Below are positions 9,114 through 51,921 of a stretch of DNA of 64,000 nucleotides, in pieces. The stretch spans positions 2,925 to 66,924 of the forward strand of contig JANQEN010000251.1 of the NCBI GenBank assembly GCA_028278335.1, written 5' to 3'. The notes under the pieces were generated by a model. It ran no database searches and was not told the DNA's origin. It was given only the letters and a program-made list of their open reading frames with translations. Each line of letters starts with the position of its first letter. Position 1 is the stretch's first letter. Origin of the DNA: Chitinivibrionales bacterium (GTDB lineage Bacteria; Fibrobacterota; Chitinivibrionia; Chitinivibrionales; JANQEN01). Made by a program: the position numbers and the translations under genes.

Positions 9114-9124
9114 CAGAGGGTGCC

Positions 9125-12898: not shown

Positions 12899-13017
12899 CA
12901 AAGTTTCGGTATATTTTGGAAAAAATTATTTTTGAAAATGTTATCCTATAGCAACAAATGTATTAGCTAATCGTAGTGGTAATTACGATATTATTTAAAA
13001 CAGAACGAATGTAAAAA

Positions 13018-13518: not shown

Positions 13519-13535
13519 GTAAAGGAGATACTGCT

Positions 13536-17440: not shown

Positions 17441-17550
17441 ACTTTACAAATATAAATTTTTTAAAGCAATCAATGAGATGGAAAAGCAGATCTGACTGTA
17501 TGGGTTGGTAGTTTGAAACGTATTCTATTTGTATGGGGTAAGTCTATGAA

Positions 17551-19308: not shown

Positions 19309-19321
19309 TGATACGCACGTG

Positions 19322-19951: not shown

Positions 19952-19957
19952 AGTATG

Positions 19958-21370: not shown

Positions 21371-21658
21371 TAAATGCTCAAAAATTACAAATTAAATATG
21401 CTAATTGAATGTGCACCAGAAAGGTAAATGCTCGTTTGTTAATCATACACACGTTAATCATATCATTATATAGTTACAATGTAAAGCAAATAGTCTAATT
21501 GTTACATTTTGTTTTATAATGAGTTAGGCATACCGATGTTAATGAGGATGAGAGGTTTTGGATATCATATAGTAAATTTTGTTGTTCTCAATAAATTGTT
21601 ACAATGATATAATTAGAACAACATTTATTTCATACTTGTAAAGGAAGGAATACAATTT

Positions 21659-22357: not shown

Positions 22358-22430
22358 AAGTACCTACTCACTTCTTTATTGGGGTTATTTGGAAAGTTAC
22401 TCTCAAAGGTACGATGGGAGTCTGATCACA

Positions 22431-24176
22431 TTAAGATTGCATGATCAATTGATATGAATGTTCGATTGCCTCTGAATGAGACCGTGCATTACAGAGTTGA
22501 GATTGTGTAAAACTCTTTTTTAATGTATTATGATATGATTCTAACGTTGAAGCGTTCTTTGCAAGATTTTTTGCGGTGCCAATATATTCTTCAACATTGG
22601 GTGTGATGAGGTCTGTACACCCAATTTGGTTCAAAATACTATATCCAACCCTTCCCCCATGTCTATCGCCCTTGAGCGTGATAACAGGCCTTCCCATAAA
22701 GAGCGCCTCACAGGTGGTTGTGGTACCATTGTAGGGAAAAGTGTCTAAGGAAATGTCAATTAAGTTGTAACAGTTTAGATGTTCTTCAAGGTTGTATGAG
22801 TGACCCATAAACAGTAATTGATCAGGCTCAATGTTGTGTTTTACAAATTGTGATTTAAATTGATGAATAACGTGAGGATCATTGAATGGCTTTGATTTTA
22901 TTACTAATTTTGAATTGGGAACATTTCTTAAAATTGCAGCCCAAACTGAAATGGTTTCTTCACTGACTTTTGGTAAATTGTTAAAGGAACCAAAAGTAAT
23001 ATACCCATTTTGTTTAAAAGGCGAAGCAGGGGGTATGTTGGAATCTAAATCAGGTGGTCGATAGCATAGAAAGCAACGAGAAAGTCGAATTAACTTTTCA
23101 GTATAGAATTGGTCCTGATCCTCAGGATCAGCTAGTGCATCGGTAATTCTAAAGTCCATTGTAGAAAGACCGGTGGTATTTGGGTATCCTAAATAGGAGA
23201 TTTGGATGGGCGCTGGCTTTTGCAGAAATAGAGTAAGCCTATTTCGACTGGAGTGACCAGCTAGATCAACCAGGATATCAATACCATCGGCATTAATCAT
23301 AGAAATCACTTCTTGATCAGAGATGTTATAAATCGGTCGCCAAACATGAGCATGATTCTTAATACGCTCGGTTGTTGAATCAACTATGGAACAGTCGTGG
23401 TAACAATATATGTGAAATTTTTTTTTGTCATGATGCTCAATAAGTGGTTCGATGAAATAACCCACTGAATGGATCCGGAAATCAGCAGAGACATAACCGA
23501 TTTTTATAGGAGACGTACTTTCTCGAATAGTTTTTCTTTGAGAGGGAGTACTGTCTTCCCTCATTCTTTTTTCCCATTCTCGGTGGAGCTCAAATACGCT
23601 ATGTTGATCCAAGGTTCGATAATTACAGGCGAGTAGAAAATTTGATGACACGGTGTTATCATTTGGTGAAATGGAAATGGCTTTTTTATAATATGTCAAT
23701 GCCTCAGTTATTTCTCCCTGATCCTTACAAAGATTTGCAAAATTATTGATAATATTTGAATTTGCCGGTTCCAATTGAATAGCTTTGCTGCATAGCTTTT
23801 TTGCCGTTGAAATTTGGCCCATTTGACCAAGGATCCCTATAATATTTATTATGGTAGGAATATGGTTGGGCATTTGGGAAAGAAGGGAATTAAATATTTT
23901 TAGTGCTTCCGAATAATGCCCTATTTCCAACAGGACCGATCCATAATTAAATGTCCATTGGGAGTTATTATTTGCACTGGAAGCCTTTTTTAGATGAGGC
24001 AGTGACTCAAGAGCTTGGCCTTTAGAGAATAAACTTAATCCTAAGAAATAGGAAGCTTCTATATGTGATGGATCTAAACGAATAATCTTATTATAGAGTG
24101 TAATTGCTTTGTCATATTCTTTTTGCTCAAAGGAAGAGCGAGCTGATTCTAGTAAATTATTTGTTTGGTCTTTCAT
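22431..24176 (-). CDS. TPR-repeat protein fused to GT41 (SPINDLY/OGT-like) glycosyltransferase (second paralogue)
   Basis: 581 aa. It shares the architecture and motifs of 17551-19308 (IGYVSADFRIHSV, VDLAGHSSRNR, YLGYPNTTG, LDTFPYNGTTTTCEA). Confidence 0.85.
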   Translation of the reverse strand: MKDQTNNLLESARSSFEQKEYDKAITLYNKIIRLDPSHIEASYFLGLSLFSKGQALESLPHLKKASSANNNSQWTFNYGSVLLEIGHYSEALKIFNSLLSQMPNHIPTIINIIGILGQMGQISTAKKLCSKAIQLEPANSNIINNFANLCKDQGEITEALTYYKKAISISPNDNTVSSNFLLACNYRTLDQHSVFELHREWEKRMREDSTPSQRKTIRESTSPIKIGYVSADFRIHSVGYFIEPLIEHHDKKKFHIYCYHDCSIVDSTTERIKNHAHVWRPIYNISDQEVISMINADGIDILVDLAGHSSRNRLTLFLQKPAPIQISYLGYPNTTGLSTMDFRITDALADPEDQDQFYTEKLIRLSRCFLCYRPPDLDSNIPPASPFKQNGYITFGSFNNLPKVSEETISVWAAILRNVPNSKLVIKSKPFNDPHVIHQFKSQFVKHNIEPDQLLFMGHSYNLEEHLNCYNLIDISLDTFPYNGTTTTCEALFMGRPVITLKGDRHGGRVGYSILNQIGCTDLITPNVEEYIGTAKNLAKNASTLESYHNTLKKSFTQSQLCNARSHSEAIEHSYQLIMQS

Positions 24177-37613: not shown

Positions 37614-37807
37614 ACTGAGTGCCATTATACTATGGTGATTGTTTGTTGGAATTTCATATTCGTCCATCTTTATATAAATAATAATTAAAATCAAAGAAAA
37701 TTGAGATTTCTGGATTTCACTCTTGTTAAATTGGTTTATTCATTTTAACATATTATTTTGAAATATTTGCACCCTTATTTTAATCCAAATTTGTAGTAGA
37801 GGAATTA

Positions 37808-38074
37808 ATGATGGCAAGAATTGGAAAAAAGCAGCTTGAGAAATTACAGAAAAAGTATAAAACCGATGAAGCAGTTGCAAAGCTTTATGGTTTGACGCGT
37901 CAAGGTATCCACAGGTTACGAAAAAAATATGCCATTCCTTCAATTAGTGACAAGAATTCCGAAAGGAATCAAATAATAAAGAGACTGAAAACCCAAGGGC
38001 ACTCTGCTGTAGCATTGGCAAAAAAGTATAGTATTTCAACTACTCAAGTGTATCGCATACTCAATGATTCATAG
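37808..38074 (+). CDS. Small DNA-binding protein with two HTH-like segments
   Basis: 88 aa. EAVAKLYGLTRQGIHRLRKKY and SAVALAKKYSISTTQVYRILN both look like helix-turn-helix units. This is the first gene of the plus-strand block of the RiPP-like locus. Confidence 0.55.
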   Translation: MMARIGKKQLEKLQKKYKTDEAVAKLYGLTRQGIHRLRKKYAIPSISDKNSERNQIIKRLKTQGHSAVALAKKYSISTTQVYRILNDS

Positions 38075-38131
38075 AACATAATTTAAGTTCTACTTCTTAG
38101 ACCCTATTTTATAATAGGCCTTTAAATTCCT

Positions 38132-38944
38132 ATGGATATTTCCCCAGAAAATAAGTGGTCAATTACGCAAGTGATATATCAAGAGATTCTTGATGAGATC
38201 TATTCACACTTTGAAACAATTAAAGTAAGGTATATGCCAATAAAGGGGGCCTATTTATTATACAGTGGGTTGGCAGACAAAATGCAAAAGCGTTCTATCA
38301 GCGATATAGATCTTCTGATTTGTGAAGAGGATAAGCAAAAGGTCTTTAATTTTTTTGAATCTCTTAGCAACATAGAGGTTAAAACAAACTTTGCAAATAA
38401 TTACAGAACAACCGAAGCTGCATTTTGGTATACTTTGGGGGAAGTACGTATAATTGTCGAGTTGCACACAGAGCTAAATGTTACTAGTAGATTTTACCTT
38501 CCCACAGAAGAACTCTTCCAACGGTCAATAGCTAAGGATCAGTTTGTGCGAGTTCCATCTCTTGAAGATAGTCTTCTCATTTTTTTATGCCATTTGCAAA
38601 CTCACATTACCTTTGAGTTTAAAGAGACAAATTTAGAAGAGATTCATCTCTTATCTGAACAAAAAGGTTTTTCCTGGACGACTTTCTGGGCTATAGCAGG
38701 AAATACTGGTATTTTACCCTTTCATTATTTTATTCTTAGAATATATGAAAAGGCATATCTTACCAATGTTAATAGCCCAAAACGATTTCTATATTCTGAT
38801 TTTCTTGTTATACTTTTCAATTGTAACATATATACTTTCAGTCCACAGTGGATAAAACGCTTACTCTTTGAATTACCTTTTGTCATGAATCCTTGGTGGT
38901 TAATTAAACAAAAAATAGGAAGAGGGAAGAAAAAACACATATAA
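38132..38944 (+). CDS. Uncharacterised nucleotidyltransferase family protein (NTP_transf_5-like)
   Basis: 270 aa. YMPIKGAYLLYSGLADKMQKRSISDIDLLICEED gives the G-x(n)-R-x-x-x-DIDLL pattern of that family. Confidence 0.65.
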   Translation: MDISPENKWSITQVIYQEILDEIYSHFETIKVRYMPIKGAYLLYSGLADKMQKRSISDIDLLICEEDKQKVFNFFESLSNIEVKTNFANNYRTTEAAFWYTLGEVRIIVELHTELNVTSRFYLPTEELFQRSIAKDQFVRVPSLEDSLLIFLCHLQTHITFEFKETNLEEIHLLSEQKGFSWTTFWAIAGNTGILPFHYFILRIYEKAYLTNVNSPKRFLYSDFLVILFNCNIYTFSPQWIKRLLFELPFVMNPWWLIKQKIGRGKKKHI

Positions 38945-38945
38945 T

Positions 38946-39806
38946 ATGAATGTCGAAGAAACTATAAAAACGATACAACCAAATCAACGTTTTAATTCGA
39001 ATGTGATGAGTTCTTTTTTTGGGGCACTTAGAAATATAGTTCTCTATAGGGACCTTGTTTTTCAACTCTTTAAAAGAGACTTTTTTGCGGTGTATAAAAA
39101 ATCTTTTATAGGGTATGCTTGGATTGCCATCTCTCCTCTTGCCAGTATTATATCCTGGATTTTTCTTCATAGTACTAATATCATCAACCCCGGTGATGTT
39201 GGTGTTCCCTATCCCATATACGTTTTAATTGGTACTATGATGTGGGGGCTATTTATGGGTGTGTTTAGTTATGTGATGAATACCATGGATATTTACCGAT
39301 TTATGATAATGAAAGCTACATTTCCTCATGAAGTTCTTTTTACAGCTCAGATCCTCATTCGATTAAGTCAATTCGCTCTTTCATTTTTAATCACTGTAAT
39401 TGTTCTCCTATTTTTTAAAGTAATCTCTCTGGTTGGACTGTTATTGTTCCCAATTATTCTTTTGCCTTTAGTTCTCTGTTCCATAGCATGTGGTCTTTTT
39501 GTCTCTATTTTATCGGTAATTTCCTATGATTTCAAACGGATTGTAATGGCTGCAATCGGATTAGTGATGTTTATCACTCCTGTTATTTACTCGATTGAGG
39601 CAATTCAAAATGTTTGGATAAAAAAGATGATTCTTCTCAACCCATTGACCTATCTTATCTGTTCTGCCCGTGATATTATTTTGTTCAATAGAGTATATGG
39701 TCTTAATCATTTTATCCTAAGTTCATTGGCTTCGCTTGTCCTCCTTGTGATTTCATGGAGAATATTTTATGTATCAGAAGATAAAATAGTTGAGAGGATG
39801 ATATAA
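38946..39806 (+). CDS. ABC-2 type exporter permease (Wzm/TagG-like)
   Basis: 286 aa with six predicted TM helices and an ABC-2 layout. It sits immediately upstream of the ATPase gene (2-nt gap). Confidence 0.8.
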   Translation: MNVEETIKTIQPNQRFNSNVMSSFFGALRNIVLYRDLVFQLFKRDFFAVYKKSFIGYAWIAISPLASIISWIFLHSTNIINPGDVGVPYPIYVLIGTMMWGLFMGVFSYVMNTMDIYRFMIMKATFPHEVLFTAQILIRLSQFALSFLITVIVLLFFKVISLVGLLLFPIILLPLVLCSIACGLFVSILSVISYDFKRIVMAAIGLVMFITPVIYSIEAIQNVWIKKMILLNPLTYLICSARDIILFNRVYGLNHFILSSLASLVLLVISWRIFYVSEDKIVERMI

Positions 39807-39808
39807 AA

Positions 39809-40582
39809 ATGTCTCATGATCCCACTAGGCAAATCAATCTTTCAATTAATGATGTTTCAAAAAAGTTTTGTAAAAATTTAAAAAGAAGTCTGGTGTATGG
39901 TATCCTTGATGTGGTAAAAAGCTCCTTGGGAATACGACCAGATACCAAAATATTACGCAAAGATGAGTTTTGGGCTGTAAACAATCTTTCAATAGATGTT
40001 GATAAAGGTGACGTTCTTGGTGTTGTTGGCAAAAATGGATCCGGTAAAACTACCCTGTTGCGAATGCTTGCCGGTATATTACCGCCAGACACGGGCAGTG
40101 CAAAAATAACAGGACGCCTATCTTCACTCTTGTCAATGGGGATTGGATTTCATCCTTATATGACAGTTTTGGAAAATATTTATATTAACGGTACAGTCAT
40201 GGGAATGCGACGAAGAGAGATTGATGAACGACTTGATTACATCGTTAGCTTTTCCGGGGTTGGTGATTTTATTCATGCCCCAGCTGGAGCACTTTCTACT
40301 GGCATGAACGTAAGGCTTGGTTTTTCGATTGCCCTGGCTGTTCAACCAGATATTTTTTTAATTGACGAGGTGTTGTCTGTTGGCGATCAGAGTTTTAGGA
40401 AAAGATGTGTTGAGGAAATAAAAAATAACTGTAAACAGACAATAGTTATTTTTGTTTCCCATAATATGGATATGATCAGGCAACTTTGTAATCGAATAAT
40501 TGTAATGGAAAAAGGTGTGATTGTTTATGACGGAAAGAATGTCGCTGAAGGTGTTCAATTCTATGACTCTCAAAAAAACTAA
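39809..40582 (+). CDS. ABC exporter ATP-binding protein (Wzt/TagH-like, no C-terminal extension)
   Basis: 257 aa. Walker A GKNGSGKTT, signature LSTGM, Walker B IFLIDEV, H-loop SHN. Confidence 0.88.
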   Translation: MSHDPTRQINLSINDVSKKFCKNLKRSLVYGILDVVKSSLGIRPDTKILRKDEFWAVNNLSIDVDKGDVLGVVGKNGSGKTTLLRMLAGILPPDTGSAKITGRLSSLLSMGIGFHPYMTVLENIYINGTVMGMRRREIDERLDYIVSFSGVGDFIHAPAGALSTGMNVRLGFSIALAVQPDIFLIDEVLSVGDQSFRKRCVEEIKNNCKQTIVIFVSHNMDMIRQLCNRIIVMEKGVIVYDGKNVAEGVQFYDSQKN

Positions 40583-40692
40583 ATCAGATATCTTCGCAGG
40601 ATCCGATTTGAGTAACAAGAATATCATCCACTGAAAAAACCTTATTAAATCGAAATTGATAAAGAAAATGCTGAAAAGAGCACAAGCCCATT

Positions 40693-42513
40693 TTGTCAAA
40701 GAAATCAAATAAATCAACGAATAAGGGTGTTGTCCGCCAAGCTTTCTATACTGAAGTAGTTTCTACCTTACAAGACTATTTCGGTGAATTGTCGATTCCT
40801 TATATGCCAATAAATGGTTTTTATTTTTTTTCACAAAATCAGAGCAATGATTTCATTCCAGAAAGCCTATTCGAATCAGTCGACGTAGTAATTCTTCAAA
40901 AGGATTTCGCTAAGGCAGTTGCCTTTTTTAGAGGACTTGGTACTACAACGAAAATTGCTGAACTTCCATCAAAATATGTATTTGCACTATCAATTGACGG
41001 TGTGGGAGTAATTAGAGTTGAATTAATTATTCAAGTAATTTTTCCTTTAAATGGTACCCTTTCTGCAGAGGAGCTTTTTTCGAAGAGCAATGAAAAAGGA
41101 TCACCATTAACGTCGTATCCCTCTTCGGAAAATGCGCTCTTACTTCTTGTTAATAAAGCTTTTCATTTTGCTGACCAATTAATTGATAAAGAGATAATCC
41201 TTAACTCTTTTACATTATTAGATTCTCCAAATTTTAACAAAAAGCAATTTGAAAAATTAATCATCAAATTTTTACTTGGGCAATTTTTTATATATCTCAA
41301 TAATATTTTATATAAAAAACAAAAGGTAACCCTAGTCAATATTAAAATCGGTCTATACCCCAAAATTTTAACACTTTGTAGGATGTATAAAATCTACTCA
41401 ATAGTACCAAGAATTTTGAGAAAGTTCATTTATAAGGCATTATTAACAGATAAACCTTTTAGGTATCTGTTTAATCATTTAGTAAATGGGATGAAGAACA
41501 GAACTGTTGAAAAATTAAACCATTTGTATAATAAAATGATAAATATCATTGCGCGAAAGTATATAATCGAGAATGAGAATACTGTATTTAACACAATTAT
41601 GGCCTCATCAAATAGAAGGTTAGGAGAATACTCATTAAATTTTGCCATAGATGAGGAGTTTATCATTGGAACATCCTCCGGATTGTGGTATCTTAAATGT
41701 GATACTCTTTATCAATTGACCTTTGCCTCAAGCTATGGGGTTACCTATGATGGTAAGCGCTGGTATGCAAATCAAAATCTTGGTCAATTTAGTAGAATTA
41801 TCTCCTTTGAAATTGATTGTGAAGGAGAAAGACCAATAATTTATAATCCACAATACCTTTGGTTGGGATTACCAAAAAGTATACATCAAATTGATTATTA
41901 TGATGGGACGATTTATGTTGTTGATACCTTAAACAATCGGATTATTACTATTGACAAACAAGGTAAGAAACAGTTCTACTCCCATAAAACAGAAAGTAAA
42001 AGGCCCTCTGTCAACAATCATTTTAATTCATTATTTTTAACTGATTCATTTATATACCTTTGTGCTCACAATGGCACATTAAAACCAAAAAGATACTCAG
42101 AAATATATGTGCTTTGTAAAGAAACAATGAAACTCTGTAATATCATTACCACTACTGCAGGAAATGCTCATAACATTCTTTTGAAGAATGAATGTTTATT
42201 CTATTGTGACTCACTTGCTGGAACATTGATGCAAGATAAAAATGATCTTTTTAAAGCTGAAGATACATTCTTACGGGGACTTGCCTATTCTGAAAAATCA
42301 ATTGTTTTAGGGGGCTCTGGATTTGCCAGGCGAGATGCACGAACATCCACTGATGGTGCTCTTTTTGTACTTACCCCTGATTTTATCCTGAAGTATTCAG
42401 ATACACTCAATCATATTGGCCAGATATACGAAATCCGTTGTGTCAATGGCGACTATGGGTTGTCAGAGTATTCAAAAAAGAATGCAAGGCTAATGTCAGC
42501 AGTTTCTGTGTAA
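40693..42513 (+). CDS. NTP_transf_5-like N-terminal domain (degenerate acidic motif) fused to DUF4915/TIGR03032-like beta-propeller-type domain
   Basis: 606 aa with a TTG start. The N-terminus is paralogous to 38132-38944 (..SIPYMPINGFYFF..), but DIDLL is replaced by VDVVIL. The C-terminal ~280 aa (..YVVDTLNNRIITID.., FLRGLAYSEKSIVLGGSGFARRD.., IYEIRCV) resemble the family often found beside sulfotransferases. The assignment is by recall. Confidence 0.55.
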   Translation: MSKKSNKSTNKGVVRQAFYTEVVSTLQDYFGELSIPYMPINGFYFFSQNQSNDFIPESLFESVDVVILQKDFAKAVAFFRGLGTTTKIAELPSKYVFALSIDGVGVIRVELIIQVIFPLNGTLSAEELFSKSNEKGSPLTSYPSSENALLLLVNKAFHFADQLIDKEIILNSFTLLDSPNFNKKQFEKLIIKFLLGQFFIYLNNILYKKQKVTLVNIKIGLYPKILTLCRMYKIYSIVPRILRKFIYKALLTDKPFRYLFNHLVNGMKNRTVEKLNHLYNKMINIIARKYIIENENTVFNTIMASSNRRLGEYSLNFAIDEEFIIGTSSGLWYLKCDTLYQLTFASSYGVTYDGKRWYANQNLGQFSRIISFEIDCEGERPIIYNPQYLWLGLPKSIHQIDYYDGTIYVVDTLNNRIITIDKQGKKQFYSHKTESKRPSVNNHFNSLFLTDSFIYLCAHNGTLKPKRYSEIYVLCKETMKLCNIITTTAGNAHNILLKNECLFYCDSLAGTLMQDKNDLFKAEDTFLRGLAYSEKSIVLGGSGFARRDARTSTDGALFVLTPDFILKYSDTLNHIGQIYEIRCVNGDYGLSEYSKKNARLMSAVSV

Positions 42514-42520
42514 AATCCTT

Positions 42521-43378
42521 ATGAAACCACGAACAATCATTCTCCTAAGTGCGCCACGATGTGGTACTTCAGCAGTACATTCGGTCTTTAATAAGCACCC
42601 CGAGGTCCATGCATTTTTTGAACCAAATTTTTGGAGTTTGGCTGTTCATGCATTAGAGGGACGACCTGAAAAACTTAAGCTGCGTTTCAAAAGGGAATTC
42701 TCTTCTATTGTGTTACCAACAACCTTTACTGAAGAGTCGATATTTGCTTTATGGGATTCAATTCTTGAAAGATATGGTCCAATAGTGTTTGAAAAAACCC
42801 CCTTTTATTTAGCAAATGAAAAAGCATTGTCACTGATCAAGAAGTATCGAAATATGGGAAACGATGTTAGGTTTGTTGGGCTAATTCGTGATCCTCGCGA
42901 TGCCATTACAAGTCAACATGAGTTGTGGGGTGGTGCTCTTTTTAAAGCTAAACTAAAGAACCGTGAAGCGTTTTGGCTAAAGAAGTTTAAGACTTTAAAA
43001 AGTCTACAAAAGGAGTTTGATGATTTTCCTCTATTTCGCTATGAAGACCTTGCTCAATATCCTGCACAACATTTCCCAAGGATGTTTGATTTTTGTGAGA
43101 TAAGAGATGAACCATCAAGCTATACACACCTAAAGCCAGTTAGTGTAGGACGATACTTTGTATCGATAAATCCAGCGGTTCGTCGATGGAAGATGGGTGA
43201 GGAGTTTAGAGCACATCTAAATCACCTTGGTTATATCCACAACCCATTGACAATCAAAAGATGGCTCTATTTGTTTTTTTCTGGCGTATTGAATGAATTG
43301 AAAAGATTGTGGAATGTTTTTCTAAAAAGAAGAAAGCGAATAAAAAGAAGAAAAACTGTACCAAGTACGAGCAATTAG
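42521..43378 (+). CDS. Sulfotransferase family protein
   Basis: 285 aa. It has the PAPS loop LLSAPRCGTSAV and a second motif LIRDPRDAITS (3'-PB-like), with a lysine-rich tail. Confidence 0.75.
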   Translation: MKPRTIILLSAPRCGTSAVHSVFNKHPEVHAFFEPNFWSLAVHALEGRPEKLKLRFKREFSSIVLPTTFTEESIFALWDSILERYGPIVFEKTPFYLANEKALSLIKKYRNMGNDVRFVGLIRDPRDAITSQHELWGGALFKAKLKNREAFWLKKFKTLKSLQKEFDDFPLFRYEDLAQYPAQHFPRMFDFCEIRDEPSSYTHLKPVSVGRYFVSINPAVRRWKMGEEFRAHLNHLGYIHNPLTIKRWLYLFFSGVLNELKRLWNVFLKRRKRIKRRKTVPSTSN

Positions 43379-43548
43379 GAAAGAGTCGCTGTCGTTCCAC
43401 CACATTCACAATCATAACCCAAATGTGCAAAGTCGACATATCCAGCGGGATATAGGAGGTCGCCAGGTCCAACATCACACCCTGCATGCATCATTTCCAC
43501 AACAAAGGGTTCTGTTTCAATTTTTGGTTTTTCGTAGGGTTTTTTCAT
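43375..43548 (-). CDS. Candidate RiPP precursor peptide (57 aa), unannotated
   Basis: ATG 43548 to TAA 43375-43377 gives MKKPYEKPKIETEPFVVEMMHAGCDVGPGDLLYPAGYVDFAHLGYDCECGGTTATLS. It is the last cistron of the kinase-PqqD-rSAM-S24 operon. It overlaps the S24-like ORF by 32 nt, and its stop overlaps the convergent sulfotransferase stop. It has a leader-like N-terminus, a Cys/Gly/Tyr-rich C-terminus and a C-terminal Ser. Confidence 0.6.
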   Translation of the reverse strand: MKKPYEKPKIETEPFVVEMMHAGCDVGPGDLLYPAGYVDFAHLGYDCECGGTTATLS

Positions 43549-44026
43549 TTTTTGAATCCAGTTTATAGAGTAGAGAGTTTAGTTTGTTTCTAAATCGTTC
43601 TTTCTTGAACCGTACTTTATTTTCTTTAATATATATCCAATTAATTAATCTAAAAAGAAAAAGAATTCTCCAGTTTTGTTGATATTTTGCTTCTCCAATA
43701 ATAGCATTTAATTGTACAATTTCAACTTTTTGAGAATAATCTCCAATAAAAAAGGCATTGTTTTTTATAATATTAATTAGACGATGGAGGAGGAGTTGAT
43801 TTTTATAAATAAAAAGATAGCATTGCCCCTTTTTTAGTGAATGCTTGCTTTGAGTCACTACAACTGTTGTTCCATTAGTATACAAAGGCCACATAGAGTA
43901 ACCTTTTACTGTAATTGAGCAATCATTTTTGCCATCAAATAGAATGTGTTTAACAAGCTTTGGGCTTTCTGAAATCATCAATTCACTTGCTATATTGATT
44001 GTGTAATTGCTCGTGCATAGTTGCAT
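43517..44026 (-). CDS. S24/S26-type (LexA/signal-peptidase-like) serine peptidase homologue
   Basis: 169 aa with the GYSMWP nucleophile motif followed by a beta-rich core. The internal Met at 43978 (MISESPKL) would remove the 37-nt overlap with the rSAM gene and may be the true start. Confidence 0.65.
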   Translation of the reverse strand: MQLCTSNYTINIASELMISESPKLVKHILFDGKNDCSITVKGYSMWPLYTNGTTVVVTQSKHSLKKGQCYLFIYKNQLLLHRLINIIKNNAFFIGDYSQKVEIVQLNAIIGEAKYQQNWRILFLFRLINWIYIKENKVRFKKERFRNKLNSLLYKLDSKNEKTLRKTKN

Positions 44027-45045
44027 ATTTGATTTGAGACATTTTTAAACTGACCAGACTCTGTATGTATTTGTCCTAAACAGATATTACAAACCTTGCT
44101 ATGTTCACAGGTATTACAGGGACAAAGATCTGATCTTCGAAGGTCCTTTAATTCTTGTAATACCGTGGAGTCTTGGATTAGATCGTAGAAAGAGCCCTGT
44201 TGAAGAAGATTTGTAATTTTTAAGTTTCGAAAAGCATTACAGGGATAAATATCACCATTTACGCCGACACAAATGTTCTTATATATACCTTTACAAATCA
44301 ACAACTCATTATTAGGTACAGTTTTGTTTCTTATGTTTTGAAAATGATTCTTTTCGTGTTCTAAAAAAGTTTCAGGTGCATTGTTACAAATTGTTTGATA
44401 AAATGAATGGGTAGTGAATCTTTTAGTTTCCACTGATTGACATATATCTTGAGTGATTATTTTATGCAAGCCAGAGCGAATAGTATATCCTTGCTTTTTA
44501 AAAAATGTATATGTTTCTTTGAACTCCTTTAAATTAAAATCTAACAAATTAAAGCCAAAATGGATATATACCCCAGCATCCTTAAGTTTTGATGCTGTTT
44601 CTAACATTTTTCTTTGTCCTTCATCAACTCCCAGGTATTTGTCATGTAAATCAGCATGGTGTGAGAAAAGGGAAAACTGAAGACTTGAGATATAGGATTT
44701 GTGATTTATTAAAAATTCAATATGCTTCTCAGTTAATAAGGTGCCATTAGACAGAATACTGATATGCCAAAAATCTTTTTTGATTGCATATTCAAGTATT
44801 TCTAGAATGTCATCTCTAATAAAGGGTTCTCCACCAGTAATCACAAGGGTCGCAATACCAGCCTCAGTTAGTTTGTCAAGTATGCCAAATGTCTTTTCTG
44901 TAGATAAATCAGGTATGTTTTTCTCGGATATATAACAATAGTTACAACAAGCATTGCATCGATGTGTTATTTCGAAGGTTGCACTGGAATAAAAGTTTTG
45001 CAATCCAAGGGACAGCAATTTTCTGCTAATGCTGTTTTCTTTCAT
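43990..45045 (-). CDS. Radical SAM / SPASM-domain peptide-modifying enzyme
   Basis: 351 aa. It has CNACCNYC (CX3CX2C), the GGEP motif (ITGGEPF) and a C-terminal auxiliary-cluster region GDIYPC ... CPCNTCEHSKVCNIC ... C. Confidence 0.88.
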   Translation of the reverse strand: MKENSISRKLLSLGLQNFYSSATFEITHRCNACCNYCYISEKNIPDLSTEKTFGILDKLTEAGIATLVITGGEPFIRDDILEILEYAIKKDFWHISILSNGTLLTEKHIEFLINHKSYISSLQFSLFSHHADLHDKYLGVDEGQRKMLETASKLKDAGVYIHFGFNLLDFNLKEFKETYTFFKKQGYTIRSGLHKIITQDICQSVETKRFTTHSFYQTICNNAPETFLEHEKNHFQNIRNKTVPNNELLICKGIYKNICVGVNGDIYPCNAFRNLKITNLLQQGSFYDLIQDSTVLQELKDLRRSDLCPCNTCEHSKVCNICLGQIHTESGQFKNVSNQICNYARAITQSI

Positions 45046-45055
45046 ATTAAGAATT

Positions 45056-45316
45056 CTATGAAAAGGATATAATATGCTTTTCTTCTAACTCCTTAATAAA
45101 TTCCCTCACATCTTTTAAAGCTGAGGAACTGTCAATTTCATAGTGCTGAACAATTGCATTCGCGATCTCTAACTCATTTTCTTTAGTTGAAATTTGTTCC
45201 CAAATGAAGCTTCCCACTTTATTAAAAGTGTGGATCCTAGAAAGCTTTCGATCGAAGATAAAGATCTCTTCACCAATTCTTTTTATTGAGAGGCTGTCAC
45301 CTATGGTTATGTTCAT
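45056..45316 (-). CDS. PqqD-family protein (RiPP recognition element-like)
   Basis: 86 aa. ..IGEEIFIFDRKLSRIHTFNKVGSFIWEQI..EIANAIVQHYEID...ALKDVREFIKELEEKHII is the classic PqqD winged-helix pattern. Confidence 0.85.
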   Translation of the reverse strand: MNITIGDSLSIKRIGEEIFIFDRKLSRIHTFNKVGSFIWEQISTKENELEIANAIVQHYEIDSSSALKDVREFIKELEEKHIISFS

Positions 45317-45327
45317 ACCATTTCTTT

Positions 45328-46245
45328 CTATATGAAGGTGTCAATTTTATCAATCATATCAACTCCTAAATTAAAATATAAATTTTCCATATCGATCTTT
45401 TTACATATTTTCTCAGTATTTTCAATCATCAATTCACTAAAGGACTGAGAAGTAGGAAAAGTATAAATGTTCTTAAAAAGAGATTTGAATCTTTCTGAAC
45501 GGGGGAGAGTTTCTGTGCTATTCGCATCACCTCTCTTTAAGAAAAAGATTTTTTTTAAAAAGGCTGATGTTTTGTTGCAGTAGACCAATTTTTGAGCGGT
45601 AGTAAATGGTGTTGAATAAACTTTGTAATCATTTTTCTCGGGCATTATGATGTTGTATTCATCATTTAACAAAGTCCATTTCTTATGCAATAAAAGACCT
45701 ATTGTTGTTTTACCAATATTAGATGGGCCACAAAAAATGATTCCTTTTCCTTTCCTATCAGATAAGGCTGAGCAGTGATAGGGAATCCCTCCCCTTTTTA
45801 AAGCTAGTAAGGAGCTAATGAGTTTAAGGGCTCTTATTATTTGAAAATCTATTGAATCATCTTCAGAATGATTGGAAATATGAAGATATGCCTCTTTTTG
45901 ATTCCAAAAGATTTTATAGAACCAATGATTTTTTTGAAATAAAAAAGATTCTTCGTCTTCATGGTAGAGTGTTTCAAATCTTTTTTCTGATTCACATTCC
46001 TTGATAAATTTACTATTTGGAGGTAAAATTTTTACCGTAAAATCAAAATTATTGCTTTTTAGTGATTTGTAGGTATTAATTATCTGCTGCAGATATGGCG
46101 ATTTTTCAACGGACTTACTTTGGTCTATTATTTTAAGTGGAATGGTTGCAATAGCTATAATCATACAATATAAAGGAAAACTGCAATTTTTTAAGCATCT
46201 TAATTGTGGTTCTATTGAAAATAATTTATGATAGCCTATTTCCAT
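45328..46245 (-). CDS. HprK-related (HPr kinase C-terminal-like) P-loop kinase
   Basis: IPYHCSALSDRKGKGIIFCGPSNIGKTTIGLLL matches the HprK-like H..A....G.G....G.SG.GKS/T core. The track ORF begins at TTG 46278, inside the flagellin terminator hairpin. I place the start at ATG 46245 (MEIGYHKL), but this is uncertain. Confidence 0.75.
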   Translation of the reverse strand: MEIGYHKLFSIEPQLRCLKNCSFPLYCMIIAIATIPLKIIDQSKSVEKSPYLQQIINTYKSLKSNNFDFTVKILPPNSKFIKECESEKRFETLYHEDEESFLFQKNHWFYKIFWNQKEAYLHISNHSEDDSIDFQIIRALKLISSLLALKRGGIPYHCSALSDRKGKGIIFCGPSNIGKTTIGLLLHKKWTLLNDEYNIIMPEKNDYKVYSTPFTTAQKLVYCNKTSAFLKKIFFLKRGDANSTETLPRSERFKSLFKNIYTFPTSQSFSELMIENTEKICKKIDMENLYFNLGVDMIDKIDTFI

Positions 46246-46247
46246 TG

Positions 46248-46285
46248 AATAAAAACGGGTTTGATCCATATGGACCAAACCCGTT
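46248..46285 (-). terminator. Intrinsic terminator / attenuator hairpin downstream of flagellin
   Basis: On the minus strand: AACGGGTTTGgTCCATATGGAtCAAACCCGTT (a near-perfect 32-nt palindrome, 46254-46285) followed by TTTATT. Confidence 0.7.
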
Positions 46286-46309
46286 ATGTTTATATAATGT
46301 AAAACAGTT

Positions 46310-47464
46310 TTAGCCTAACAAACTCAAAACACTCTGAGGTCGAATATTCGCTTGAGCAAGCATACTAGTTGCTGTTTGAGTGATGATTTGATTTTTTGTA
46401 AAATTTGCAGTTTCGCCAGCAAAATCTACATCTCTTATAATACTCTCAGCAGCTTGTTGGTTTGCTTCCGAAGTCAGAAGATTGTTTGAAGTATGCTCAA
46501 GTCGATTGATTGTCGCGCCGATATAAGCACGCATTCTATTGATTCGTTCGATTCCTGTATAGTTGGTGTTGGTCGCATTTGTTACTAGAGCTCCTGCAGT
46601 TGGATTTGTTGTGTCAGTTCCATCAATCACCTCAAGCAATGTTTGCAACTTATCTTGAACGGTTTCACCAAATCGCTGTTGCATTGGAGTTAGAGCCGGG
46701 ATTGGTGGATCTGGATTATCAAATGCATTAGTGGTTTCTGCAAATCCTGTAAGATATTTTATAAATTCTCCACCAATCTGAGCATTCTTAAAAAACAACC
46801 CGGTAGAATCCATTTGTCCTAGCTGAATGGTTATAAGGTTTTTGGCTGATTTATCAAAGCTGTTCAATTGGGCACCAGTATTTAAAGCATCTGAGTCATC
46901 TGTTGAGTAATTTTGACCCACCATCATATTGAAGTGTGTTGCCTTTCCATTGTCATCTGCACCAAATACAGCATCGCTAGTATCATCCCAGATTGTTCCT
47001 GCTACTAGAGATCTTTTTGGGTCTCCATTAGCGGAATCAGCATCGTCAAATAAAGCAAAAAGCCTCATTCCATTATAGTTTGTAACCTGTGCAATCCTAT
47101 CCAATTCTCTTGTTAGAGCTTCGAATTCTTCACCCATATAATTGCGCTCTATTTGAGTGTATGTATCATTTTTTGCTTGGACAACAAGCTCGCGCATACG
47201 TTGCATGATATCAGACTGTTCATTGAGTGCACCCTCCGCAACATTAAGTAAAGCAATAAAATCCTGGGTGTTATTCATTGCCTGACCCGCTCCACGTACT
47301 TGAGTTCGCAGATTCTCGGAAATACCCAGACCCGCTGCATCATCGGATGCTCGGTTGATTCGGAGTCCAGTGGAGAGTTTCTCTAAAGATTTGGACATTG
47401 ATCGGCTCGATTTGAAAAGGGAGCCTTGGCTGACCATTGACGCTATGTTGTGATTTATTCTCAT
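46310..47464 (-). CDS. fliC: Flagellin
   Basis: 384 aa. The N-terminus is MRINHNIASM...LSTGLRINRASDDAAGLGISE. The C-terminus is ..INRLEHTSNNL...ESIIRDVDFAGETANFTKNQIITQTATSMLAQAN. Confidence 0.95.
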   Translation of the reverse strand: MRINHNIASMVSQGSLFKSSRSMSKSLEKLSTGLRINRASDDAAGLGISENLRTQVRGAGQAMNNTQDFIALLNVAEGALNEQSDIMQRMRELVVQAKNDTYTQIERNYMGEEFEALTRELDRIAQVTNYNGMRLFALFDDADSANGDPKRSLVAGTIWDDTSDAVFGADDNGKATHFNMMVGQNYSTDDSDALNTGAQLNSFDKSAKNLITIQLGQMDSTGLFFKNAQIGGEFIKYLTGFAETTNAFDNPDPPIPALTPMQQRFGETVQDKLQTLLEVIDGTDTTNPTAGALVTNATNTNYTGIERINRMRAYIGATINRLEHTSNNLLTSEANQQAAESIIRDVDFAGETANFTKNQIITQTATSMLAQANIRPQSVLSLLG

Positions 47465-48549: not shown

Positions 48550-51500
48550 ATGGCCCTTGAAACAGAAATGTCCATTTCAGTTCTGGAAGAGAAGTTAAAA
48601 AGTAATCCCCTTTCTTTGATTTTTTCTCGCCTCGCCGATTCCTATAGAAAAAGTGGTGATGTTCAGAAAGCGATTGAAATCTCTACAGAGGGATTAGAGT
48701 CACATCCCGATTATGTCACCGGTAGAATTATTTTGGGCCGATGTTATTTAGAACAAGAAAATTTCAATGACGCCATAAAAGAATTTACCAAGATATGCAC
48801 ACTGGACAGACGTAATCAAATAGCAATTAAGATGCTTGCGGATGTTTTTTCTAAACAGGGTATGGAGGAAAAAGCCGGTGATCTTTATCAAATGTTGTTG
48901 AGGATGGATCCTGATAATCCTTCACTTATTCATTTGGCCAGCGTGTTTGCTGGTACAGGAAGCACTGATGTCTTTGAAGTTTTAGGGATTGAAGATTTTG
49001 CTGCCCCTTTACCAATCAGCAAAGCTGAGGTTTCAGAAGAGGACGTTGAGCAAGAATTAGAGGCTTCTCTTGACGAGGCTCCTCTGGAAACTGCCCCGCC
49101 AGAAGCCACTCCCACTCTTTCTGCAGAGGAAACTTCGGAATTTCCACCACTTGAGCCGAGCTTAGAGGATCAAACCCCACAAGAACAACAGCTCGAAGAA
49201 ATGCCATTGGATGCACCGGAAATCCCAGGACAAGAGGACTCCAGTCTAGATAATCCTGAGGATAAAATGGAAGTGTTAGAAAGTGATACTGATAAGGTCT
49301 CTGAAGGGGTTGTTGCGCTTGATTTTGAAGAGCCTTCTGACTCTGGAAAGGAAGAAGAGGAGTTTACTTTAGAGCCTAAAGAGGATGGTGATCCCTCAAT
49401 CAAGGAGATCCATACCCTTCAAACTATGGAACCAGAACAATCCGAAGAATCATTAGAAATTGAAGATAGTGTTGAAGTGGTAGAGCCTTCGGCTGATGAG
49501 TTGAAAGAAGATGAGTTGAAAGAAGAGGAGTTGAAAGAAGAGGAGCTGAAAGAAGAGGAGCTGAAAGAAGAGGAGGCTCTTCAAGCTCCCGAAGAATTAG
49601 GGGAAGAGCTAGCTATTCCATTGCAGAGTGAAGAAGAAGGTGTTGAAGATCTTTTGAATCCCCAGGAATCAACTAAAGATCTTCCAGGTGAACTCCCACC
49701 TTTACAGCCAGCAATAGACATTGAAGAGGAATCAACAACCAGTGATGAACTGAGCGATAGAATGGATTCAATGTTTGGTGAGGAGGAGTCAATCGAGGAA
49801 TCACTTCCTGAAGCCATTGAACCGATTGAGGAGTTAACCACCAAAGAAGTAGAGCAACAATTGGATTCAGAAGTACAGGATAGTCCTGAAATTCCTGAAG
49901 AGGATGATTTATCTGATCGTCTGGAGGACATGTTTAAAGAGGAGTCTACCGAGCCAAAAATTCCAGAATTTGATCTTCAAGGCTCGAATGAAATGCTTGA
50001 AGAAGTTGAACTCCCACCGCTTGAGGAGGAGAAGTCTCAAGAGGACGGCATACCTGCCCTTCCGCAGTTTGATACGGAAGAGGAGGAAGGAACAGACCAA
50101 TTTATACTAGATGAAACGATTGAATCGGAAGATAAACCTGAGTTAGAAGTACCCATTTTAGAGGACGATCCTGTAGAATCATCCATAGAGAGTGATGTCC
50201 CAATCCAAAATGAAGCCTTGAACGAAGAGGTGTTGACAGAAGGGATAATGACTCAGGAAGTTGAAATAGAGATTGATGCGCCTATTGAAAGCGAACAGCC
50301 CTTTGATAAGGCAACTGAAGTCTTTGAAGTTGAACAACAGGAATCTTTAATAGAAGATATATCTACTGAGCAAGATGATCCAATTGGCACTGATGATGAA
50401 ATTGAAGCAGAGGAAGAGTCGGAACAAACTAAGATTATTAGCTTTGGTGAACAGACATCCTTTGAGACTCCGGAACCATCTCAAGATATTCCAACTATTG
50501 ACGAGGAGGGGACCGAAGATTTAATTACTGATGCAACTGCAGTTTTTGATAGGGAGAAAATAAAAGAGATCGCCTCTTCGGTGAGTGATGAAATTGAAGT
50601 GTCCGCAGAATCACCTATAAGTAGTGAAGTTATGTCCCGATTAGATGAAATGTTTGCCGATGAAGAGGGAAAATCTGAAACAAGTCAATTGCAAAAACCA
50701 GAGACGAGCCTCTATGAGTTTACAAAAACAGAGGAACTATCAGAAGAGACAACTGAGGAAAATTTACCCTCTGGAAAAGACGTGGCCTCACATTTTGATG
50801 AAATATTTTCACCTGAACAACCAAAGGAAGAGGAGTCTTTTGAGCCTTTACCATTAGAAAATGTTGAGGAGAGCGAATTGGTCAGTGAGTTTTATGAGGA
50901 AACTCAGGAGCCAGTAATAGAACCTGAAACACCCAGTGCATTGGATGAAGATTTTGAACTCTCCGAGGATGAAGTTCAAAAAATTGAGCAAGTCACAAAA
51001 GAGATCGATACTATTGAAGATGATACACTTGACATAATTGATGGCGACCTATCCTTGGATAACCTTGATCTTGACACTCTTGACGATGAGGATGATTTAG
51101 AGCTTACCACTGATTTTTATACTGAGGAGGGAGATACTGCTGATTCTTCTGAGACAGCCATTGACATTGAAACAATTGAGTCTAAAGATGAAGCTGTTAT
51201 TGAATCAGATTCAGATACTGAAGAGGAATTGAAAGAAGAGGAGCCTGTTGCATTTGCTTTAGACTTAACAAATACGGAACAAGATCAGATTGAGAAAGTC
51301 GATCCACTCTTGGAGGATGATTCCTTAACCGATCATTCTGCTGTTGATGCGATTCCTGATGAGCCAATAGAGGAAGAGAGTGCTGTGCATGGAGAATTTT
51401 ATACTGTTGCTGGAGACGAAGCTGTACCCGAACCTGAGGATGTTCCTCAAGTTGAAGAAGCTATCCAAGAGGAGGTAGAAGAGGAGGCTCGTGAAGACAC

Positions 51501-51921
51501 GGTTAAGGAAAGTGACTTTTTAGGGGTTGAGGAAAAGCAGGTCAAAATTGATTCAATGCAGCAGGATGATTTTATTAAAGGTAAAGCTGAATCAATTCCT
51601 GATCATGTTCTTACACCAACCTTGGCTGATATCTACTTTCAACAAGGACAACCCTATTTGGCAGTACAAATTTACAAAAGGTTATTAGAGCGGGACCCTG
51701 ACAATGACCGTATGGCTGAACGCATCGAAGAAATCGAGAAGGATATTAAGGAGCGTGAAGAACAACAGGAACTGGCAACTCTTGCTGGAGAAGCTCAAGT
51801 GACCAGAAAGCGGGGGCGTCCTAAAAAGAAAGAAGATGAAGGAAAAAAGCGACCGCTTAAAGGTGTGCGTATTAAGAAAAAAGTCAAAGCCAGGATAAAT
51901 AAAAAAAAGACCTCCGATTAA
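48550..51921 (+). CDS. Large acidic protein with TPR ends, E/D/P-rich disordered core and basic tail
   Basis: 1123 aa. It has N-terminal TPRs (~aa 1-130). A ~850-aa low-complexity E/D-rich region includes (ELKEE)x5. A C-terminal TPR follows (LADIYFQQGQPYLAVQIYKRLLERDPDN), and the tail is K/R-rich. Confidence 0.8.
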   Translation: MALETEMSISVLEEKLKSNPLSLIFSRLADSYRKSGDVQKAIEISTEGLESHPDYVTGRIILGRCYLEQENFNDAIKEFTKICTLDRRNQIAIKMLADVFSKQGMEEKAGDLYQMLLRMDPDNPSLIHLASVFAGTGSTDVFEVLGIEDFAAPLPISKAEVSEEDVEQELEASLDEAPLETAPPEATPTLSAEETSEFPPLEPSLEDQTPQEQQLEEMPLDAPEIPGQEDSSLDNPEDKMEVLESDTDKVSEGVVALDFEEPSDSGKEEEEFTLEPKEDGDPSIKEIHTLQTMEPEQSEESLEIEDSVEVVEPSADELKEDELKEEELKEEELKEEELKEEEALQAPEELGEELAIPLQSEEEGVEDLLNPQESTKDLPGELPPLQPAIDIEEESTTSDELSDRMDSMFGEEESIEESLPEAIEPIEELTTKEVEQQLDSEVQDSPEIPEEDDLSDRLEDMFKEESTEPKIPEFDLQGSNEMLEEVELPPLEEEKSQEDGIPALPQFDTEEEEGTDQFILDETIESEDKPELEVPILEDDPVESSIESDVPIQNEALNEEVLTEGIMTQEVEIEIDAPIESEQPFDKATEVFEVEQQESLIEDISTEQDDPIGTDDEIEAEEESEQTKIISFGEQTSFETPEPSQDIPTIDEEGTEDLITDATAVFDREKIKEIASSVSDEIEVSAESPISSEVMSRLDEMFADEEGKSETSQLQKPETSLYEFTKTEELSEETTEENLPSGKDVASHFDEIFSPEQPKEEESFEPLPLENVEESELVSEFYEETQEPVIEPETPSALDEDFELSEDEVQKIEQVTKEIDTIEDDTLDIIDGDLSLDNLDLDTLDDEDDLELTTDFYTEEGDTADSSETAIDIETIESKDEAVIESDSDTEEELKEEEPVAFALDLTNTEQDQIEKVDPLLEDDSLTDHSAVDAIPDEPIEEESAVHGEFYTVAGDEAVPEPEDVPQVEEAIQEEVEEEAREDTVKESDFLGVEEKQVKIDSMQQDDFIKGKAESIPDHVLTPTLADIYFQQGQPYLAVQIYKRLLERDPDNDRMAERIEEIEKDIKEREEQQELATLAGEAQVTRKRGRPKKKEDEGKKRPLKGVRIKKKVKARINKKKTSD
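49495..49575 (+). repeat. 15-bp in-frame tandem repeat (~5.4 copies) encoding (D/E)ELKE
   Basis: The units are gatgagttgaaagaa x2, gaggagttgaaagaa and gaggagctgaaagaa x2. Confidence 0.9.

Follow-up and report, generated by a model that had tools for sequence, protein, structure and literature searches.

Introduction

Phosphorylated lasso-peptide clusters, such as those of paeninodin and pseudomycoidin, encode a discrete PqqD-type recognition element, a kinase related to HPr kinase, and a precursor with a YxxPxL-type leader and a terminal Ser. The YxxPxL element is bound by the lasso-type recognition elements (RREs) of peptides that are ribosomally synthesized and then modified post-translationally (RiPPs), and the lasso exporter is a fused, McjD-type transporter. 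In the kinase-bearing clusters, the linear precursor is phosphorylated on its C-terminal Ser by the HPr-kinase homologue, and the phosphate receives one or two hexoses from a nucleotidyltransferase that is often a fusion with the B2 protease (PMC8498205); a sulfotransferase is found in some of these clusters (PMC8498205, PMC4289311). The SynChlorMet cassette, described in silico by Haft (NCBIfam/TIGRFAMs), contains an HprK-related ScmC-type protein, a PqqD homologue, and two radical S-adenosylmethionine (rSAM)/SPASM enzymes; we found no described product for it in the literature. In the sacti- and ranthipeptide systems (AlbA, SkfB, CteB, PapB), an rSAM/SPASM maturase and an RRE act on a Cys-bearing precursor. 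Here, we analyzed an 11-gene locus at positions 37808-46285 of a 64-kb stretch of contig JANQEN010000251.1 from a Chitinivibrionales bacterium; "the window" denotes this whole stretch.

The locus shares with the phosphorylated lasso clusters the discrete PqqD-like RRE, the YxxPxL-type leader, the HPr-kinase-related kinase, the terminal Ser, an NTP_transf_5-type nucleotidyltransferase, and a sulfotransferase. However, in place of the Asn-synthetase-like cyclase and the transglutaminase-like B2 protease, it has an rSAM/SPASM enzyme and a serine peptidase resembling SEC11/SipW, the precursor has three invariant Cys and no Thr at −2, and the exporter candidate is a two-component ABC-2 transporter rather than a fused McjD-type one. 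With SynChlorMet, it has the trio of ScmC-type protein, PqqD homologue, and rSAM/SPASM enzyme in common, but it has one rSAM enzyme only and adds an S24-like peptidase, NTP_transf_5, a sulfotransferase, an ABC-2 pair, and an identifiable precursor. Unlike the sacti- and ranthipeptide systems, its RRE is a separate protein and its maturase passes no class model cutoff; to our knowledge, tailoring by a kinase, NTP_transf_5 and sulfotransferase and a signal-peptidase-like protease have not been described for those peptides. By analogy, the locus would work like a hybrid in which a sacti/ranthipeptide-type rSAM system is joined to the tailoring half of the phosphorylated lasso clusters, that is, as an RRE-dependent rSAM RiPP system. 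The best explanation of the whole, to which we assign a probability of about 60%, is that the cluster makes a RiPP that is cross-linked by the rSAM enzyme, phosphorylated at its C-terminus, and further decorated, in a Chitinivibrionales-like host. The peptide is probably cross-linked via its three Cys and phosphorylated on the last Ser, and it is perhaps decorated with sugar or sulfate. What had first been observed in this DNA is confirmed, and most, though not all, of its first interpretation is supported. The original prediction for this DNA knew of no characterised member with this combination; similarly, open-access papers and bioRxiv yielded no such member, nor any paper on the product or biochemistry of this architecture.

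A conserved 11-gene cluster with a genuine precursor gene

All 11 open reading frames (ORFs) appeared in the ORF list of the window at the coordinates first proposed, and the same 11 genes were called independently on the public source contig Logan SRR20820740. The plus- and minus-strand blocks are convergent, and their stop codons overlap at 43375-43378, as the original prediction had described. The hidden Markov model (HMM) check of each protein that it had proposed was carried out and gave matches to HTH_7, NTP_transf_5, ABC2_membrane, ABC ATPase, Sulfotransfer_3, Peptidase_S24, Radical_SAM/SPASM, and PqqD. As shown in Table 1, nine of the ten enzyme and regulator families at the locus were confirmed by HMM, structure, or motif.

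The full gene order recurs in two relatives, L009 (an ENA contig submitted as Chitinivibrionales, an order within Fibrobacterota) and L017 (a metagenome-assembled genome (MAG) of GTDB), in L002 as far as the end of its contig, and partly in L003. The stop-to-stop junction of the two blocks is kept in the window, L002, L009, and L017, while L003 ends before the junction. Flanking genes for flagellin, a CCA-adding enzyme, a tetratricopeptide repeat (TPR) protein, and an M24 peptidase are also shared with L009. The gene order recurs even though the ScmC-type kinase of L002 is only ~43% identical to that of the window, and the 11-gene arrangement is thus far beyond chance. The cluster, which serves to make a small ribosomal peptide, is real and is conserved in Chitinivibrionales-like bacteria (Fibrobacterota).

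The precursor of 57 aa (MKKPYEKPKIETEPFVVEMMHAGCDVGPGDLLYPAGYVDFAHLGYDCECGGTTATLS) carries Cys24, Cys47, Cys49, and the C-terminal Ser57. It is 75-81% identical in L002, P0008, and L009, and comparison of the genes gave a pN/pS of 0.12-0.19, with pN of 0.09-0.14 and with synonymous sites saturated (pS ~0.75). The ORF is a genuine gene under purifying selection. In L017, the precursor (MKEKYEKPVIETENFTVEMMQAPCTVGPDDTQYLTSYVSFSGYNCACTTTNYNSS) retains its leader, all three Cys, and Ser as the last residue, and its core has otherwise diverged, including the residues before Ser. The leader motif YEKPKI fits the lasso-like YxxPx(L/I). This motif and the selection on the peptide gene bear out the earlier claim of a RiPP-type locus with a real precursor. 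The segment VLAGC was also considered as a lipoprotein lipobox and was rejected on inspection of the sequence, the preceding segment being charged and having no hydrophobic signal core.

Table 1. Features of the 11-gene locus and its flanking terminator, with coordinates in the window and supporting matches (E-values).
Feature	Coordinates	Strand	Support
Small helix-turn-helix (HTH) regulator, HTH_7/Mor-like, first gene of plus block	37808-38074	plus	Pfam HTH_7 2.6e-9
Canonical NTP_transf_5 nucleotidyltransferase-fold enzyme	38132-38944	plus	Pfam PF14907 2.2e-19
ABC-2 (Wzm-like) permease	38946-39806	plus	Pfam ABC2_membrane 3.7e-11; NCBIfam galactan Wzm 3.4e-9, below cutoff
ABC ATPase, TagH/Wzt-like	39809-40582	plus	ABC_tran 2.4e-19; TagH 5e-49 and Wzt 3.6e-48, both below cutoffs
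Fusion (606 aa) of probably degenerate NTP_transf_5-like domain (~aa 11-267) and beta-propeller (~aa 300-600)	40693-42513	plus	phmmer; AlphaFold2 (AF2) model
Sulfotransferase, 3′-phosphoadenosine 5′-phosphosulfate (PAPS) type	42521-43378	plus	Sulfotransfer_3 2.1e-13; Sulfotransfer_1 1.8e-8
Precursor peptide, 57 aa	43375-43548	minus	Leader MKKPYEKPKIETEPFVVEMMHAG; core CDVGPGDLLYPAGYVDFAHLGYDCECGGTTATLS
Signal-peptidase-like Ser/His peptidase (clan SF)	43517-44026, likely true start ~43978	minus	Peptidase_S24 1.8e-7
Radical SAM/SPASM peptide maturase	43990-45045	minus	Radical_SAM 1.2e-21; SPASM 3.4e-4
Discrete PqqD-like RRE	45056-45316	minus	PqqD 6.6e-15
ScmC-family HprK/PEPCK-fold P-loop kinase	45328-46245 (ORF to 46278)	minus	NCBIfam TIGR04249 ScmC 6.3e-13; Pfam PF27840 ScmC, precomputed
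Intrinsic terminator of flagellin gene, parting it from kinase operon	46254-46285	minus	Stem-loop and T tract

Enzymes of the minus-strand cassette

The PqqD-like protein matched Lasso_PqqD_Bac at 1e-8 (35 bits; cutoff, 80) and ScmD at 3.7e-4, both below cutoffs. The rSAM enzyme has the full SPASM Cys pattern in its sequence and no N-terminal RRE of its own. Its nearest named models, all far below cutoffs, were AhbD (AhbD/NirJ2; 2e-26), ScmE (4.7e-25), AlbA (1.2e-24), and StsB; the scores against the sacti- and ranthipeptide models AlbA, StsB, and PapB ranged from 1e-24 to 1e-12, again below cutoffs. The closest PDB sequences were the thioether-forming SkfB (1.3e-13) and CteB (9e-6). An rSAM/SPASM enzyme combined with three invariant Cys most simply suggests thioether cross-links. 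In the PADLOC defence-system search, no specific match was obtained; only the rSAM core matched pVip, and the ABC ATPase matched generic ATPase models. A viperin-like rSAM plus kinase defence system was therefore rejected, since the match concerned the generic rSAM core and the SPASM domain, PqqD, and conserved peptide argue otherwise.

For the kinase, the best NCBIfam match was TIGR04249, "SynChlorMet cassette protein ScmC", and HprK_rel_A was matched at 0.009 only. No match was found in an older Pfam set, and a precomputed match to PF27840 (ScmC) exists for the window protein and all of its relatives. The protein has the Walker A sequence GPSNIGKT and an invariant Asp206 in the segment LNDEY, which we take to resemble the "DD" motif of HprK. 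Phosphoenolpyruvate carboxykinase (PEPCK) and HPr kinase belong to the same fold superfamily; the top Foldseek matches of the AF2 model (mean pLDDT confidence, 72) were ATP-PEPCK, with an E-value of 1.7e-9 and a TM score of ~0.5. Related ScmC-type members also match the HprK_rel_A, HprK_rel_B, and HPr(Ser) kinase models. The family match, P-loop, and PEPCK-type fold place the protein in Pfam ScmC, with kinase activity as a prediction. Thus, the fold and P-loop of the HprK-like kinase originally proposed hold, and its label is corrected to Pfam ScmC (PF27840). An exhaustive HMMER search gave 12,863 representatives of the kinase superfamily at E ≤1e-3 and 5,343 at ≤1e-10, and the window's own clade was rare, with one other representative above 300 bits; a word-index homology search gave four matches.

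The equivalog cutoffs of SynChlorMet (TIGR04248-04251) lie well above the scores found here: ScmC, 48.7 against 125; ScmD, 20.7 against 100; and ScmE, 88.3 against 400. On these scores, the locus is related to the SynChlorMet cassette but is not a member. Because no ScmC-type member reaches any NCBIfam cutoff, the clade has no curated family name. The original description of the system as unclassified is accordingly modified: it remains below every NCBIfam cutoff, but its kinase belongs to Pfam ScmC and its minus block resembles SynChlorMet.

The peptidase gene probably starts at the internal Met listed in Table 1, as judged by comparison with homologues. The GxSMxP, HR, and GD boxes are invariant in five homologues, and the Ser (SMxP), His (HR), and Asp (GD) boxes of signal peptidase S26B (SEC11/SipW type) are all present. 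An archaeal signal peptidase I model was matched at 1.6e-6, and the closest solved structures were the human signal-peptidase catalytic subunits SEC11C and SEC11A (1e-5), with the boxes aligned. The invariant boxes and this alignment indicate a Ser/His peptidase of the SEC11/SipW (S26B) type that is soluble; on inspection, its sequence showed no evident N-terminal membrane anchor, in contrast to SEC11 or SipW. The S24-like peptidase named at first therefore retains its Pfam S24 match, but it is closer to SEC11/SipW than to LexA-type S24.

The likeness to phosphorylated lasso clusters raises the question of whether this is an ordinary cluster of that kind with its cyclase and B2 protease elsewhere in the genome. 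The PqqD-like protein is closest to lasso B1 models, the leader has the YxxPx(L/I) motif, and the tailoring set matches that of kinase-bearing lasso clusters. In addition, the core of the window clade reads C-x-V-G-P-x-D, with Asp at +7 from Cys24 (+8 from residue 23), which formally fits a macrolactam ring. However, conservation of this Asp does not extend to the wider family, Thr is missing from position −2 of the leader, and the operon has the rSAM/SPASM enzyme and three invariant Cys as integral parts. Among the ORFs of at least 430 aa in the window, Pfam annotation revealed no Asn-synthetase-like cyclase (the 606-aa fusion has no Pfam match), and when the B2-like proteins of L006 and L007 were used to build a HMM, it found no B2-like ORF among the six-frame ORFs of the window. 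The 10 kb flanking the L009 locus on each side and the L017 stretch examined contained neither a lasso cyclase nor B2. We therefore rejected a lasso cluster, as no cyclase or B2 protease occurs in the 64 kb, and we regard a pair located elsewhere as highly improbable. The earlier statement that the lasso core is absent from the window agrees with this result; the rSAM/SPASM enzyme and the signal-peptidase-like protease take the places of cyclase and B2.

A widespread family of kinase-associated peptides

Next, a census was made with a kinase profile in genome and metagenome collections and a peptide profile in a protein database; neighbouring families were called with HMMs built from these sequences and supported by Pfam checks. 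Approximately 30 more distant loci carry ScmC with PqqD and usually rSAM. The recurrent cassette consists of PqqD, rSAM, peptide, ScmC, and S24-like peptidase, often followed by NTP_transf_5 (L010, L038, L039), and the family is spread over Fibrobacterota, Omnitrophota, WOR-3, Anaerolineae, candidate-phyla-radiation bacteria, and many metagenomes. Fusions of the S24 peptidase occur with NTP_transf_5 (L005, L030) and with a GNAT domain (L004, L025, L028). A lasso-B2-like transglutaminase holds the protease slot in L006 and L007, and a C25 peptidase does so in L008, L013, and L014; in L021, the S24 peptidase lies downstream of the kinase and a C25-like protein upstream. A protease position that can be swapped in this way suggests a role in leader removal. 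The neighbourhood survey that the original prediction had called for thus confirmed part of the expected co-occurrence, namely a conserved PqqD/rSAM/peptide/ScmC/S24 cassette with or without NTP_transf_5, whereas the sulfotransferase, ABC-2 pair, and propeller were confined to the window clade. The minus-strand cassette represents, at this locus, an uncharacterised family that is widespread, and the plus-strand genes except NTP_transf_5 are a clade-specific add-on.

The peptides of the family share a K-rich N-terminus, YxKPx[LIV], and a conserved ...AVLxGC junction; the core that follows has three Cys and is often hypervariable. The last residue was Ser or Thr in 17 of the 21 tabulated peptides, corresponding to 9 of 12 sequence groups (binomial P 4.7e-5 against 19% Ser/Thr in the cores). 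Since nine of the 12 groups encoded beside ScmC-type kinases end in Ser/Thr, the phosphorylation of the C-terminal Ser that had been predicted gains comparative support. The fusions of protease and NTP_transf_5 mirror the B2-nucleotidyltransferase fusions of lasso clusters (PMC8498205), and together with the rule of the terminal Ser/Thr they provide independent comparative support for the analogy with lasso tailoring.

Two further observations were made in the census. In L005, a MAG of Candidatus Gottesmanbacteria, a 157-aa protein (7547-8020, minus strand) has a KKPYKTPKI leader motif fused to a Peptidase_S74 intramolecular-chaperone domain; its gene lies between two ScmC paralogues and near the S24::NTP_transf_5 fusion, with no rSAM (related coordinates 6719-7546, 9668-10471, and 12095-13423). 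In L029, a 2654-aa ORF (8383-16344) with an S24-like segment lies directly downstream of ScmC in a PqqD-rSAM-ScmC cassette.

Plus-strand block and its possible substrates

Orthologues of the HTH regulator occupy the same position in L009 and L017. The canonical NTP_transf_5 enzyme keeps the catalytic motif KG...SDIDLL (G, DxD) and falls in the Pfam family that had earlier been assigned to the lasso-cluster nucleotidyltransferase PsmN; comparison with PDB sequences gave nothing informative. The 606-aa fusion protein has no Pfam match, but phmmer (1e-17 to 1e-19) showed homology between its N-terminal half and the product of the neighbouring NTP_transf_5 gene. In all four orthologues, the first Asp of DxD and the preceding KG are lost, so this domain is probably catalytically degenerate. 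Of the two NTP_transf_5 enzymes originally described, both are homologous, but only the canonical one keeps G...DxD; the second is degenerate and fused to a beta-propeller. The sulfotransferase has PRCGTS and RDPRD motifs and is weakly similar to the CurM sulfotransferase, the search of PDB sequences being otherwise uninformative. The ABC ATPase has 257 aa and is without a C-terminal carbohydrate-binding extension. The families first given for the sulfotransferase and for the ABC-2 permease and ATPase were confirmed by HMM.

The C-terminal half of the fusion was modelled by AF2 as a beta-propeller (pLDDT 79). Foldseek returned generic propellers only (E ~1e-9) and gave no functional lead; homologues of this half match DUF4915 weakly, and the word-index search gave three matches. 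Stand-alone propeller homologues with 30-37% identity were found in the glycan loci L015 (5908-6849) and L041 (9884-10930). The L015 locus has two NeuB genes, a CMP-sugar synthetase, and glycosyltransferases, L015/L016 being a nonulosonic-acid/glycosyltransferase cluster, and the archaeal L041 locus (Hodarchaeota) has an arylsulfotransferase, GT1 and GT2 glycosyltransferases, and a glycerophosphotransferase. These contexts suggest that the DUF4915-like propeller acts on sugar or polyol-phosphate substrates.

Several findings weigh against a cross-linked and decorated peptide as the product. The rSAM enzyme scores equally well against heme and mycofactocin rSAM enzymes (AhbD, NirJ, MftC), all below cutoff. 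No rSAM gene is visible in L005, L006, L026, and L030, which do encode the kinase, PqqD, and NTP_transf_5, and, since the peptides of L026 and L030 are Cys-rich, Cys could form disulfides. Three peptide groups (L007, L008/L013, L030) end in neither Ser nor Thr, and the second NTP_transf_5 is without one catalytic Asp. Such conservation of the core would be unusual in an antimicrobial and could point instead to a signal or cofactor. The ABC pair is of the glycan-export type (TagH/Wzt/Wzm-like), the stand-alone relatives of the propeller lie in glycan or teichoic-acid-like loci, and, in the census, the sulfotransferase, ABC-2 pair, and propeller fusion were absent from all ScmC loci outside the window clade. 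This restriction and the glycan-locus relatives indicate that these four genes may serve a non-peptide substrate.

A rival explanation is that two independent modules are merely neighbours, with the minus-strand cassette making the cross-linked and perhaps phosphorylated peptide and the plus-strand block building or exporting a sulfated glycan or teichoic-like polymer, or modifying a flagellin glycan, without acting on the peptide. Besides the transporter type, the propeller relatives in L015/L016 and L041, and the clade restriction, this explanation draws on the adjacent flagellin gene and on a GT41/FkbM island 20 kb away. However, NTP_transf_5 is a recurrent and even fused partner of the ScmC/PqqD/S24 set in unrelated lineages and also occurs in lasso clusters, and genes for glycosyltransferases, sugar nucleotides, or lipid carriers are missing from the plus block. 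Furthermore, the blocks stay stop-to-stop in the window, L002, L009, and L017 despite protein identities of ~43-60%, and sulfotransferases accompany kinase-bearing lasso clusters as well (PMC8498205, PMC4289311). We consider two separate modules a serious but minority possibility.

Alternatively, the peptide could be the precursor of an intracellular cofactor or dedicated signal, as in pyrroloquinoline quinone (PQQ) or mycofactocin, with the kinase and NTP_transf_5 giving transient activation instead of a lasting decoration. Conservation of the core amounts to 75-81%, against enzymes that have diverged to ~43%, the rSAM enzyme also resembles MftC and PqqE, and the locus lies at a fixed chromosomal position beside housekeeping genes in all relatives. 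Nevertheless, the locus has a dedicated ABC-2 exporter and a regulator and no partner oxidoreductase, and sister groups with the same enzymes (L004, L010, P0012, P0013) have hypervariable cores, which are typical of secreted bioactive RiPPs. A cofactor or signal precursor therefore seems improbable.

Proposed pathway

If the cluster makes a cross-linked and phosphorylated RiPP, its biosynthesis may proceed as follows. The discrete PqqD protein would bind the YxxPxI leader of the 57-aa precursor, and the rSAM/SPASM enzyme would cross-link the core via the three invariant Cys, most likely by Cys-to-carbon thioethers of the sacti-/ranthipeptide kind. The ScmC-type HprK-fold kinase would then phosphorylate the hydroxyl of Ser57, as the HPr-kinase homologue does in paeninodin, and the canonical NTP_transf_5 would extend the phosphate with sugar or nucleotide-derived units, as reported for pseudomycoidin. 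Further decoration may come from the fusion of degenerate NTP_transf_5 and propeller and from the sulfotransferase. The cytoplasmic SEC11/SipW-like peptidase would cut off the leader near the conserved ...HAG|C junction, and the TagH/Wzt-like ABC-2 pair would export the product or give self-protection. We infer all of these steps, the C-terminal phospho-tailoring by analogy with kinase-bearing lasso clusters. Likewise, we infer that the sulfotransferase and propeller act on the peptide and that the ABC-2 pair exports it, the latter being plausible.

A more speculative, and in our view unlikely, proposal is that the product is a peptide-primed, teichoic-acid-like glycopolymer. Here, the phospho-Ser of the rSAM-cross-linked peptide would anchor a sulfated chain of glycosyl- or polyol-phosphate, which the NTP_transf_5 enzymes would build together with the DUF4915-like propeller and the sulfotransferase, and which a TagGH/Wzm-Wzt-type transporter would export. 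The same proposal holds that kinase, RRE, NTP_transf_5, and protease form a portable C-terminal tailoring module that was joined independently to lasso cyclases and to rSAM enzymes.

Genomic surroundings of the cluster

In each member of the clade (the window, L002, L003, L009, and L017), a flagellin gene (46310-47464 in the window) is the immediate upstream neighbour of the kinase operon. As this adjacency is limited to one clade, it is not independent evidence. The terminator of this gene has a 14-bp stem, of which 7 pairs are GC, with a T tract after it, and lies 3′ of the flagellin stop, indicating that the kinase operon is a separate transcription unit. Its position (46285-46254) also indicates that the kinase starts at ATG 46245, the start first proposed, or at ATG 46164, not at the end of the ORF at 46278; ATG 46164 is more likely, as it aligns with the starts of homologues. 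Flagellin as a substrate or co-transcribed partner was rejected because this strong terminator parts the two transcription units.

No terminator was found between the sulfotransferase and the convergent peptide gene (43375-43378), and the gap is 3-4 nt in L002 and L009. With overlapping stops and no terminator, the transcripts of both blocks must overlap, and antisense interference is possible. The G+C content of 37800-46300 is 0.32-0.36, which is below that of most of the window (0.37-0.45), although the chromosomal position is conserved among relatives.

Farther away, a minus-strand run at 16475-26619 encodes an APH-like phosphotransferase, an FkbM methyltransferase (19958-21370), an 820-aa GT1 protein, and two glycosyltransferases of TPR plus GT41 type (17551-19308 and 22431-24176). 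These genes have the appearance of an island for glycosylating a protein, possibly flagellin, and lie ~20 kb from the flagellin gene. On the other side, 48550-51921 encodes a 1123-aa TPR protein whose very long, acidic, low-complexity middle has (EELK)n repeats; it is conserved beside the locus in L009.

Implications

If the proposed pathway is correct, the cluster would represent a RiPP family that has no characterised member and is spread over several phyla and metagenomes. Its precursors can be recognized by a K-rich N-terminus, YxKPxL, the AVLxGC junction, three Cys, and a C-terminal Ser/Thr, and the kinase together with this peptide signature is a ready search rule for genome mining. The S24::NTP_transf_5 and S24::GNAT fusions provide a handle on NTP_transf_5, an otherwise uncharacterised Pfam family. 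Leader removal by a soluble signal peptidase of SEC11/SipW-like type would be a new route beside those of the known leader proteases, and C-terminal phospho(glyco)sylation would be a modular tool that is reused with scaffold-forming enzymes other than those of lasso peptides.

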